This document shows, piece after piece, positions 1-45,670 of a stretch of 47,816 nt of DNA. Positions within the stretch are counted from its first letter, which is position 1; the number at the start of each line of letters is the position of its first letter. The notes below the pieces were generated by a model. The model was not told the origin of the DNA and ran no database searches. It saw only the letters and a list, made by a program, of their open reading frames with translations. This DNA comes from Candidatus Woesearchaeota archaeon (GTDB taxonomy: Archaea > Nanobdellota > Nanobdellia > SCGC-AAA011-G17 > GW2011-AR18): positions 1 to 47,816 of the forward strand of contig JAGVZG010000007.1 of assembly GCA_018302765.1 (NCBI GenBank), in the 5' to 3' direction. The translations under genes were made by a program, and so were the position numbers.

Positions 1-74
1 CGGGGTCTATTCTGACGGGGTCTACTTGGGCTGTGACGGGGTTCCTCAGGGCTCGGGCTCGGGGTTGTGGGTAC
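1..74 (+). repeat. DGR variable repeat (VR), 5'-truncated by window edge
   Basis: Aligns to 380-436 and 458-474 with 18 mismatches, all at TR adenines (14 A>G, 3 A>T, 1 A>C). Confidence 0.92.
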
Positions 75-94
75 GTCGCGCAAAAATTTTTAAG
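1..94 (+). CDS. 3' end of DGR target gene (partial; probable C-type-lectin-fold variable protein)
   Basis: Frame from nt 2 reads GVYSDGVYLGCDGVPQGSGSGLWVRRAKIF* (TAA 92-94) and contains the VR. The CLec fold is inferred from known DGR targets. Confidence 0.85.
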
Positions 95-379
95 TGATTT
101 TTCTAATTTTTTTATAAATAGAAATTTATTAAAATTGATTATTTATCAGTAAATTAGTCTTAGGGAGTAATTTCTTGAGGTTTCATTATCCTAGTGGAAT
201 CAATGACAGAATGAAAGCGAAAGGCTACACGCAGATGCATAGTGCATGGACGGTTTAAGTCTAAATGCCATGAAATACAATGATGATAGCTAGTAATAAT
301 GACAAACCTTGGGAAAGTTTTGAATAAATGCTAAAATTATGGTGAAACTTGATGAATCTGCTAATACTGTCGTTAGGTT

Positions 380-474
380 CAGGGTCAATTCTGACAGGGT
401 CAACTTGAACTGTAACAGGAATCCTCAGAACTCGAAATCAAAAACATAAGACGAGACCTCGAGGTTGTGAATAA
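380..474 (+). repeat. DGR template repeat (TR), alignable part; probably extends upstream
   Basis: AAC/AAT-rich copy of the VR (reads RVNSDRVNLNCNRNPQNS in the VR frame), lying 52 nt upstream of the RT ATG. Carries a 21-nt segment absent from the VR. Confidence 0.92.
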
Positions 475-526
475 CCTTAGTTTTTTAAAACTCTCTAAGA
501 CAATTAATATTTTGGTAGGTACTATA

Positions 527-1594
527 ATGAAAACTTATACAAATTTATATAAGAATATTTTTACTTTAGAGAATCTAAAATTAGCTTTTGAAAAGGCAAA
601 GAAAGGCAAGGCAAAAAAATATTATGTTATTAAATTTGAAGAGAATCTGGATGAAGAATTAAAACAATTATGAAATGAATTAAAAACATTAACTTACAAG
701 CCAAGAGAATTAAAAAGATTTATTGTAAGAGATCCAAAAACTAGGGTAATTCATGCTTCTGCTTTTAGAGACAGGGTAATTTATCATGCGCTAATAAATA
801 TAATAGAGCCAATATTTGAAAAAGTATTTATCTATGATTCTTATGCAAGTAGGCTAAAAAAAGGAACATTAAATGCAGTTTTAAGATTTGATAAATTTAA
901 AAGAAAAATTACTAAAAACTGTCAGCTCGTTAAAAATGCATTTGACAACAATTTAGTGATTGGCTATGTCCTAAAAGCAGACATAAAGCACTATTTTGAT
1001 ACTGTAAATCATGAAATATTAATTAAAATATTAAAAAGAAAAGTCAAGGACGAGAAAGTTATCTGGCTGATTAATAAGATACTAAACAATTATGAAATGA
1101 AAATAAAAGGCATTGGAATGCCTCTAGGAAACCTGACATCGCAGTTCTTTGCTAATGTCTACTTAAATGAATTAGATTATTTCATAAAGCAGGAGCTAAA
1201 GATAAAGTTTTACATACGTTATGTGGATGATTTTGTTATATTGCACAATGACAAGAATTTACTTGAAGAATATAAGAATAAAATAAATAATTTTCTGATA
1301 AACAGTCTGAAATTAGAACTTCACCCAGATAAGTCTAAAATAATACCTTTAAGAAATGGAATCAATTTATTAGGCTATAGGAACTTTTACCATTATAAAC
1401 TTTTAAGAAAAGTCAATAAAAGAAAATTTAAAAGAAATTTTAATTGGAAAATAGAATTATACGAAGATGGTTTCTTAAGCTATGAGGATTTTATTTCAAA
1501 CTTAAAAGGTTGGTTTGGTTATGCAATCTGGGCAGACACATATAATTTTAGAAAGAATATTATTAAAAGATTAGAGAGTATTAAGAATCTATAA
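527..1594 (+). pseudogene. DGR reverse transcriptase interrupted by one in-frame TGA (671-673)
   Basis: ORFs 467..673 and 956..1594 share a frame and the gap is open (RDRVIYHAL). Motifs KADIKHYF, GMPLGNLTSQFFANVYL, RYVDD. ATG 527 follows an SD-like GGTAGGT. Confidence 0.9.
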
Positions 1595-24400: not shown

Positions 24401-24561
24401 GCGGGGGTGCCGGAGTGGCCAAACGGGCCAGATTCTAGATTCACTTCATAATGAACTAGAAGGTTTAGCTTAGGTAAGTTAAGGTGTTATAAATAATAAT
24501 GCTGAGACTTAAAGATACCTGGTGGCTCAGGCCTACGCAGGTTCGAATCCTGTCCCCCGCA
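24401..24561 (+). tRNA. tRNA-Leu(UAG) with introns at 30/31 (24432-24467, 36 nt) and 37/38 (24475-24516, 42 nt)
   Basis: Leu-type acceptor GCGGGGG, long variable arm, TTCGAAT. Removing two BHB introns gives CCAGG-CTTAGGA-CCTGG; mature length 83 nt. Confidence 0.85.
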
Positions 24562-24666
24562 CTATATTCTCAGTAACATGCGTTGACAAAATTTAATATT
24601 TTTTAGAAATCTGCTTTTCTGAAATCGAAAAGATAGCTTTTTATAATAGAAATTTACGAGTATTTT

Positions 24667-44438: not shown

Positions 44439-44879
44439 TTAAATTTTTTTTAAAATGCCTCTTCTTTGTAGCGCATCTACTAAACAATAAGCCCATTCAC
44501 CTATTGCGCTTCTGTCTTCATCAGCCAACGTCATTGGATAAAAGGAATATATTCCGCCTATGGAAATTTCATCACCATATTTTCTAAAAAGATATCTATT
44601 GACAAGTTTTAGTTGAGAAATAAGAGCATTGTGAGTTATTTTTCTTAACTGGTCTAGATTTCTAAATTTTTCTATTTCTTGTTCATCAGTCTGAGTTCTA
44701 AATCTATGTATTATTCCTATTCTTTCTACATTAGCAACGACCACTACATATCTTTCGCATATTTCTAATAATTGCTGGACGTGCTTTAGTCCAGCTTGGT
44801 CATTGTTTAAATTCAATAAATCTATTATTTTCTTATATCTGCTGTACGCTTTTGCTGATTCTCTTTTCTCATTTTCCAT
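44439..44879 (-). CDS. hypothetical helical protein
   Basis: ATG 44879 chosen because the track start (44915) lies inside tRNA-Gln. Confidence 0.6.
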   Translation of the reverse strand: MENEKRESAKAYSRYKKIIDLLNLNNDQAGLKHVQQLLEICERYVVVVANVERIGIIHRFRTQTDEQEIEKFRNLDQLRKITHNALISQLKLVNRYLFRKYGDEISIGGIYSFYPMTLADEDRSAIGEWAYCLVDALQRRGILKKI

Positions 44880-44888
44880 GATTATAAA

Positions 44889-45016
44889 TAGCCCCGCCAG
44901 GATTTGAATTCCCAAACATTTTATGTTCCTGGGTCAATGGCTTTCTCCATCGAATACCAAAGGCCACTTTAAGGATACTTTTTAAGTATTATCCTTGGCC
45001 GCTAGACGACGGGGCT
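44889..45016 (-). tRNA. tRNA-Gln(UUG) with introns at 25/26 (44969-44990), 37/38 (44943-44956) and 53/54 (44909-44927)
   Basis: A1-U72 acceptor typical of archaeal Gln; three BHB motifs; spliced length 73 nt with GTGGC-CTTTGGA-GCCAT. Confidence 0.88.
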
Positions 45017-45043
45017 ATAAAATAAACAGTATAGATTTTAGTT

Positions 45044-45670
45044 TTAAAAGTTTGCTATTTTATTATTTTTAGTTTTATACCTACCACGACCTTCAACTTT
45101 ATTAAGTCTCTCAATTATTAACTTATAATTATTAGAGTTTTCTTTATAGCCGTCCAAAACAGCTTTAAAACTAGAATTATAGTGTTTGTAGTGTTTACTC
45201 TCCAAGGCTTGTTTTAGTAAATGCAAATCAACTGCTTTATGCTCTTCTTTTTGATCTATAAAGCTCAGTCCAAAATCTATAAAATAAACATCGTTGCCCT
45301 TTAAGATCATATTTGATGTTGTTAGATCACCATGAATTATATTGTTGTTATGTAATAAAGCAATATTATTTCCAACCAGTTTGCAAATCCAAAACCTTTT
45401 TTTATTATCAAAAGAATCCAAATAATCAGCTAATTTTTTTCCATCGATAAATTCCACCACTATCTTAAAATCATTAAAAGAAATTAATTTAGGAACATTA
45501 ATTATTTTTGAAGCTTTTTCTAAAATTGAAATTTCCCTTCTTGTCCTGTATTTTCTTATTTTTTCATCCAATTCTTTAATTCTGTAATTTTTAGGAACCC
45601 TTTCTTTTATTATTAGTTTTTTATCTAAATATATTTTAGCTTCTGCTCCTTGGGAAATTAAAGTTTTCAT
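45044..45670 (-). CDS. bud32: KEOPS kinase Bud32
   Basis: QGAEAKI, IIHGDLTTSNM, IDFGLS, AVDLHLL. Confidence 0.93.
   Translation of the reverse strand: MKTLISQGAEAKIYLDKKLIIKERVPKNYRIKELDEKIRKYRTRREISILEKASKIINVPKLISFNDFKIVVEFIDGKKLADYLDSFDNKKRFWICKLVGNNIALLHNNNIIHGDLTTSNMILKGNDVYFIDFGLSFIDQKEEHKAVDLHLLKQALESKHYKHYNSSFKAVLDGYKENSNNYKLIIERLNKVEGRGRYKTKNNKIANF

Follow-up and report, generated by a model that had tools for sequence, protein, structure and literature searches.

The window analyzed here, i.e., the whole stretch of 47,816 nucleotides, carries on its minus strand a tRNA-Gln(UUG) gene of 128 nt (44889..45016), which consists of four exons and three introns and does not encode the CCA end. 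Exon 1 (44991..45016; 26 nt) covers the 5' strand of the acceptor stem and the D-arm to position 25 and is followed by intron 1 (44969..44990; 22 nt) at position 25/26. Exon 2 (44957..44968; 12 nt) covers position 26, the 5' strand of the anticodon stem and the loop with the anticodon TTG (44960..44958), and is followed by intron 2 (44943..44956; 14 nt) at the canonical position 37/38. Exon 3 (44928..44942; 15 nt) comprises position 38, the 3' strand of the anticodon stem, the variable loop and the 5' strand of the T-stem; intron 3 (44909..44927; 19 nt), at position 53/54, separates it from exon 4 (44889..44908; 20 nt), which supplies the T-loop, the 3' strands of the T-stem and acceptor stem and the discriminator A73. 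The GC content of the exons is about 60%, as compared to 30% for the genome. Intron lengths, intron sites and tRNA identity are exactly those described in an earlier note on this DNA, and the observation that a genuine tRNA-Gln(UUG) gene is cut in four by three short introns was confirmed.

When joined in silico, the four exons form a product of 73 nt with fully paired stems, identified by ARAGORN as tRNA-Gln(ttg). Its acceptor stem has 7 bp, the D-stem includes two G-U pairs, the D-loop has 9 nt and contains GG, the anticodon stem has 5 bp, the variable loop has 4 nt and the T-arm is perfect; on our own cloverleaf check, the product scored 25 out of 25. Together, ARAGORN and the cloverleaf check found anticodon UUG, U33, a purine at position 37, G18G19 and a T-loop starting with TTC. 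The first cut was placed at the canonical 25/26 because the D-loop has 9 nt. The unspliced gene received no call from either ARAGORN or the Rfam tRNA model, just as the earlier note had expected in stating that annotation could easily miss it. A split or permuted tRNA gene was ruled out, as the four exons follow one another in order within 128 nt, and self-splicing group I or group II introns were ruled out by the intron lengths (14-22 nt) and by the absence of an Rfam intron match at the locus.

Each of the three introns forms all four pairs of the central helix, flanked by a 3-nt bulge on either strand, i.e., the arrangement that characterizes the archaeal bulge-helix-bulge (BHB) motif. Intron 1 has the central helix AAGG/CCTT, bulges ATA and AAA and a 6-bp inner helix (ATACTT/AAGTAT); intron 2 has the central helix CTTT/GGAG (with two G-U pairs), bulges GGT and AAA, a 2-bp inner helix and an outer helix that corresponds to the anticodon stem; and intron 3 has the central helix CCCA/TGGG, the outer helix TTGA/TCAA and bulges GGA and AAT. 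The outer and inner flanking helices measure 1 and 6, 6 and 2, and 4 and 1 bp for introns 1, 2 and 3, respectively, where the outer helix of intron 1 is only 1 bp in strict register and the inner helix or hairpin of intron 3 requires a 1-nt bulge or, otherwise, 2-nt bulges. The handedness of the motif is correct in all three cases, with the 4-nt strand on the exon side followed by a 3-nt bulge and the inner helix and, on the return strand, the partner followed by a 3-nt bulge and the outer helix. The mature product results if each 3-nt bulge is cut behind its second nucleotide, and the earlier claim that these cuts rebuild an exact 73-nt cloverleaf was borne out both by ARAGORN on the joined exons and by the orthologues described below. 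The cut at 25/26 may slide by one base (to 26/27), which leaves the product unchanged. With the exons held fixed, 20,000 shuffles of each intron attained the observed helix geometry at frequencies of 0, 1.4% and 0.055% for introns 1, 2 and 3, respectively. Moreover, among the 2,914 possible pairs of start and end positions within the gene (lengths of 10 - 40 nt), 6 reached a comparable BHB score. The BHB geometry is thus unlikely to have arisen by chance.

As ARAGORN accepts 14 BHB-like excision combinations, this program alone does not give a unique answer, and it is conceivable that the gene is spliced differently to give a tRNA of another identity or length; products accepted by ARAGORN also include Lys(UUU), Thr(AGU), Ala(GGC) and Phe(AAA). 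These alternative products show weaker BHB scores, lengths of 77-91 nt or 71 nt, or anticodons with A34, whereas the solution given above has the best BHB scores among the 14 combinations and is the only one that combines the standard 73-nt product with a sensible anticodon. In addition, Gln genes of relatives, intron-less ones among them, agree with the gene in the A1-U72 acceptor pair, in A73 and in the D-arm, and orthologues without individual introns read the exact Gln(UUG) product. We thus consider a different splicing pattern or identity extremely improbable and retain tRNA-Gln(UUG) as the product. RNAfold, applied to the precursor and to all partly spliced intermediates, predicted the helices of introns 1 and 3 as probable (0.5-0.95). 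It never predicted the BHB of intron 2, nor the anticodon stem even of the mature tRNA, and is therefore uninformative for intron 2; failure to predict the anticodon stem is due to a self-complementary GGCC present in both the D-loop and the anticodon stem. The order of splicing could not be deduced from the RNAfold results.

Orthologues were obtained by a BLAST search of the gene against 60 relatives, followed by extraction and in silico splicing. In nearly all of them, a gene for a RIO-like kinase is located directly upstream, i.e., the orthologues are syntenic. Exon 1 is 96-100% identical in the relatives (BLAST), and the mature tRNA is identical at 73 of 73 positions in the host genome (G000) and in G001, G012, G015 and G023, despite different sets of introns in these genomes; differences among the other orthologues are limited to compensatory changes in the T-stem. 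The combination of 25/26, 37/38 and 53/54 found in G000 was also present in G003 and G016, which belong to other genera. Two members of the same genus as G000 carry different sets, i.e., 15/16, 37/38 and 53/54 in G001 and 10/11, 25/26 and 37/38 in G002; the latter set was also found in G024, while G023 has introns at 15/16, 25/26 and 53/54. Two introns each were found in G015 (10/11 and 25/26), G014 and G008 (25/26 and 37/38), G012 (15/16 and 37/38), and G005 and G026 (37/38 and 53/54). G004, as well as G053 and G048 from other families, have an intron at 37/38 only, and G058 and G049, also from other families, have none.

These comparisons bear directly on the junctions. Intron 1 is absent from the orthologues in G001 and G012, both of which read the predicted joined sequence, intron 2 is absent from those in G015 and G023, and intron 3 is absent from those in G002, G015, G012 and G014. 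As each junction is thus matched by at least one natural intron-less allele that reads the exact predicted spliced sequence, the junctions can be regarded as confirmed by comparison with relatives, and intron-less alleles in syntenic orthologues represent the strongest evidence available for them at the DNA level.

Overall, seven of the 15 orthologues of tRNA-Gln(UUG) in the family carry three introns, and five intron sites (10/11, 15/16, 25/26, 37/38 and 53/54) are used in changing combinations across the family. The inner helices at 25/26 vary in sequence between genera and keep a length of 4-8 bp, and in G023 and G008 the motif lies one base further 3' (at 26/27) and yields the same product. 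Using a tree of the flanking RIO-like kinase, a minimum of 16 intron gains and losses was counted, which is to be read as a rough estimate rather than a firm number because 8 of the 11 inner branches of this tree are unresolved. Likewise, the presence of three different triplets of introns in one genus depends on the kinship labels of the search tool, from which genus placement was taken. A blastn-short search of the genome for further copies of the three introns returned AT-rich noise only.

Between G000 and G015, which are labelled as different genera, the 22-nt intron at 25/26 is 100% identical (locus L004 of G015 compared with window positions 44957-45006), while the proteins encoded by the flanking kinase gene share only about 66% identity. 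The identity of the intron points to either constraint on it or recent exchange. A 5' exon nearly identical to that of Gln(UUG) is found in the Gln(CUG) gene of the host, and the Gln(CUG) genes of relatives also carry introns at 25/26 or 10/11, which suggests that introns may be exchanged between the two isoacceptor genes.

Upstream of the gene, the motif TTTTAAAA (45042..45049, minus strand) is located 26-33 nt from the mature 5' end, where it overlaps the stop codon of the RIO-like kinase gene. As this motif recurs with unchanged spacing in 10 of 17 orthologous loci, we consider it a putative archaeal TATA box that may serve as the promoter of the tRNA gene. On the other side, a mechanically predicted ORF with a TTG start (44439..44915, minus strand) reaches 27 nt into the tRNA gene, as the earlier note had correctly remarked of the ORF track. 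The real start of this ORF is probably the ATG at 44879, because the match to DUF3232 begins at residue 5 of the shorter form.

At the other end of the window, the start of the contig holds a diversity-generating retroelement (1-1594, plus strand). It includes a match to the Rfam RT-16 RNA (173-369; 79 bits), a template-like repeat (about 380-440) that differs from a variable-like repeat (1-60) only at template adenines, and a reverse-transcriptase ORF (527-1594; PF00078) in which one in-frame TGA is present, at codon 49. The end of the contig truncates the target gene of the retroelement.

Because the sequence comes from a metagenome bin, we also considered that the gene might be an assembly artefact, i.e., a chimera of the tRNA-Gln genes of several organisms. 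Exons 1 and 4 are indeed common to many co-occurring organisms and assembly graphs break there; joints seen in the contigs of individual runs belong to Gln genes of other organisms that share these two exons. However, the identical 128-nt gene was present in contigs of independent metagenome runs from at least three studies. Two unitigs are identical from end to end (X6, covering 44888-45015, and X8, covering 44888-45017), and a 490-nt contig (X10) covers the whole gene and its flanks with zero differences. DNA contigs from four runs were examined, and these served for the assembly check only. As the gene is identical in independent runs, and synteny with the flanking genes is kept in relatives, it is not an assembly chimera, and the probability of such an artefact is next to nil.

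The host, a tiny uncultivated groundwater archaeon, has a genome of 1.02 Mb (28 contigs, 30% GC, estimated 100% complete); judged by ribosomal protein S15, the closest relatives that carry a name are groundwater MAGs labelled 'Candidatus Woesearchaeota archaeon'. The locus was present in metagenome runs from groundwater and soil, none of which is on record as RNA. The earlier note had raised the question of another Gln(UUG) gene in this genome; five search routes, i.e., ARAGORN with introns allowed, the Rfam tRNA model, self-genome BLAST, a search for Gln-type acceptor pairs and a partial intron-aware census, did not reveal one, so that among detectable genes the one described here is unique. 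The only other Gln gene is a Gln(CUG) gene (C24:30232-30343, plus strand) with a 26-nt intron at 25/26 and a 13-nt intron at 37/38; ARAGORN miscalls this gene as tRNA-Leu(gag). In long open frames, CAA accounts for 3196 of 4762 Gln codons (67%), and as CAA is thus the majority Gln codon, a UUG anticodon is needed.

The same genome-wide data indicate that interruption of tRNA genes is widespread in the host. ARAGORN called 23 tRNA genes, of which 21 contain an intron, and 18 were called by Rfam; several of the ARAGORN calls are clearly wrong, with introns of 369 and 2823 nt or anticodons starting with A. About half of the tRNA set is hidden from these standard tools. Our census, which followed a SPLITS-like approach (acceptor-pair seeds, BHB enumeration and ARAGORN) and is partial, with some loci ambiguous, resolved 19 loci, of which two have no intron, 10 have one, three have two and four have three. 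A 179-nt gene (C24 26269-26447) was scored as Phe(GAA) in this census, and its assignment is ambiguous. Within the window itself, ARAGORN called a tRNA-Arg(tct) with an 80-nt intron (24401-24562, plus strand). Three introns are thus not exceptional in the host genome, where tRNA genes are broadly interrupted and at least four genes carry three introns according to the partial census.

The data on orthologues, uniqueness and codon usage also allow an assessment of whether the gene is a decaying tRNA pseudogene with insertions that are never removed and CAA read by another tRNA. While such a pseudogene would explain why the standard finders give no call at the locus, the exons are identical or nearly so across genera, and the introns diverge, or come and go precisely at the junctions defined by the BHB motifs. 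Changes in the T-stem are compensatory, the upstream promoter motif is conserved, and an alternative Gln(UUG) gene was not found in a genome estimated to be 100% complete in which CAA represents 67% of the Gln codons. A pseudogene is hence highly unlikely. Very probably, the locus represents a functional and apparently the only tRNA-Gln(UUG) gene of this Woesearchaeota (DPANN) archaeon, with three protein-spliced BHB introns at 25/26, 37/38 and 53/54.

The genome contains the enzymes that such a gene would need. A single-copy gene for the splicing endonuclease EndA (contig C12 of G000, locus L021, 1474-2112, minus strand; PF02778 and PF01974) specifies a two-domain alpha unit of 212 aa, whose catalytic Tyr, His and Lys align with the corresponding residues of M. 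jannaschii EndA. The protein aligns to this alpha4 enzyme without insertions and has neither the 9-residue Crenarchaea-specific loop (CSL) of the A. pernix alpha subunit nor the 6-residue insert of the N. equitans alpha subunit; if the TTG start is real, the N-terminus is extended by about 44 poorly conserved aa. As a gene for a second EndA subunit was not found in the genome, this single alpha unit presumably forms a homotetramer of the plain alpha4 type. RtcB is present (565 bits). GatD and GatE, by which archaea convert Glu-tRNA-Gln, both score above their NCBIfam cut-offs, which indicates that the transamidation pathway is encoded. The A1-U72 pair may serve as an identity element for GatDE. 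In GatE (C16:42815-44239, plus strand), profile positions 1-268 and 400-619 are matched in one open frame of 493 aa, and about 130 residues of the usual insertion domain seem to be missing.

We infer from the gene and these enzymes that the tRNA is made by standard archaeal tRNA splicing, most likely carried out three times on one precursor. The gene would be transcribed from its own TATA promoter into a precursor of about 130 nt, in which the single alpha-type EndA would recognize each BHB and cut after the second nucleotide of each 3-nt bulge, i.e., at six positions. RtcB would then ligate the four exons, the ends would be trimmed and CCA added, and a non-discriminating GluRS together with GatDE would produce the Gln-tRNA that reads CAA. 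The central helix of intron 1 takes up G22-G23 (3' strand of the D-stem) and that of intron 3 takes up C49-A51 (5' strand of the T-stem); as the BHBs of these two introns occupy D-stem and T-stem nucleotides, the cloverleaf would form only after both are removed. The three motifs overlap at single nucleotides only (G27 and U43) and can coexist, so that no fixed order of removal would be required.

Alternatively, the introns may be real while excision of the two non-canonical ones, at least, is inefficient or conditional, in which case the intron load would throttle or regulate the supply of tRNA-Gln(UUG) and would not be neutral. EndA with loops is the type associated with broad specificity, and the host EndA is without them; two of the motifs are slightly relaxed (the outer helix of intron 1 and the inner helix of intron 3), and the D- and T-stems have to form in competition with the BHBs of introns 1 and 3. 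On the other hand, strong inefficiency would be costly for what is apparently the sole decoder of the majority Gln codon, and other genera (G003 and G016) have kept this arrangement of three introns. We consider inefficient removal very unlikely and favor routine splicing of all three introns; as the three motifs are nearly canonical, a strict EndA without loops could plausibly handle them.

The closest precedents are the multiple-intron tRNA genes of Thermoproteales (Pyrobaculum, Thermofilum and Caldivirga), where a single gene can hold as many as three BHB introns (Sugahara et al. 2008, as cited in PMC4033280, PMC4090602 and PMC8450103); positions 25/26 and 53/54 are both listed among the known non-canonical intron sites (PMC4090602). 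As in the family studied here, the canonical 37/38 site is combined with non-canonical sites in Thermoproteales, and introns turn over quickly between related species. In contrast to the (alpha-beta)2 EndA of Thermoproteales, the enzyme found here is a single alpha-type EndA without the Crenarchaea-specific loop, and the host is a DPANN archaeon (Woesearchaeota) from a mesophilic habitat with a genome of roughly 1 Mb and 30% GC. Multiple tRNA introns, with non-canonical ones among them, also occur in ARMAN-2 (Ca. Micrarchaeum; PMC3239211, PMC3488258), another ultrasmall DPANN archaeon, whose EndA, however, is a three-unit epsilon2 enzyme with a specific loop, as compared to the single two-domain alpha unit of 212 aa in the host.

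Kaneta et al. 2018 (PMC5829648) report a marked rise of disrupted tRNA genes in DPANN genomes with alpha4-type EndA, including a Woesearchaeota and a Pacearchaeota MAG, and note that incomplete tRNA sets in DPANN imply undetected disrupted genes; the host genome likewise yields an incomplete tRNA set by standard tools. An individual three-intron Gln gene is not described in the text consulted. The paper ties disruption to the L3 loop insert of EndA, whereas the EndA found here lacks the 6-residue insert of N. equitans, which may correspond to L3. The description of three-intron tRNAs in the earlier note as rare and chiefly found in Thermoproteales holds for their occurrence in that order (PMC8450103, PMC4033280, PMC4090602), while their rarity was overstated for the host lineage, given at least four such genes in the genome, seven of 15 orthologues, and the data in PMC5829648. 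In Asgard archaea, a 2026 preprint (bioRxiv 10.64898/2026.10.13.758758) describes most tRNA genes as interrupted, with up to five intervening sequences per gene, repeated gains, and many introns missed by standard annotation; Asgard archaea represent a different superphylum, and the preprint does not mention Woesearchaeota or Nanoarchaeota. Multiple BHB introns at these positions, with up to three per gene, are thus of a kind already described, and three introns per gene equals the long-published archaeal maximum (Thermoproteales), which is exceeded by the five in the Asgard preprint.

With regard to annotation, the apparent only decoder of the majority Gln codon goes unseen by ARAGORN and the Rfam tRNA model. 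As the genome yields only 18-23 tRNA calls with these tools, quality metrics for DPANN MAGs and inferences of 'missing tRNAs' will be wrong unless multi-intron searches are used. The gene also provides a well-documented case, with intron-less alleles for every junction, that heavy disruption of tRNA genes extends beyond thermophilic Crenarchaeota, and the family-wide comparison represents a compact data set on rapid intron turnover. The plain EndA of the host does not fit the view that heavy disruption of tRNA genes goes together with specific loops. One may speculate, as a tentative proposal that we regard as rather unlikely at present, that in this family an otherwise frozen tRNA gene swaps BHB introns among five sites fast enough to give three different triplets in three species of one genus, all of them handled by a single plain alpha4-type EndA without the L1, L2 or L3 inserts held responsible for non-canonical introns. 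If this were true, the lineage would offer a natural system in which to catch the gain of BHB introns in progress, and it would represent a counter-example to the model in which a specific loop enables tRNA disruption.
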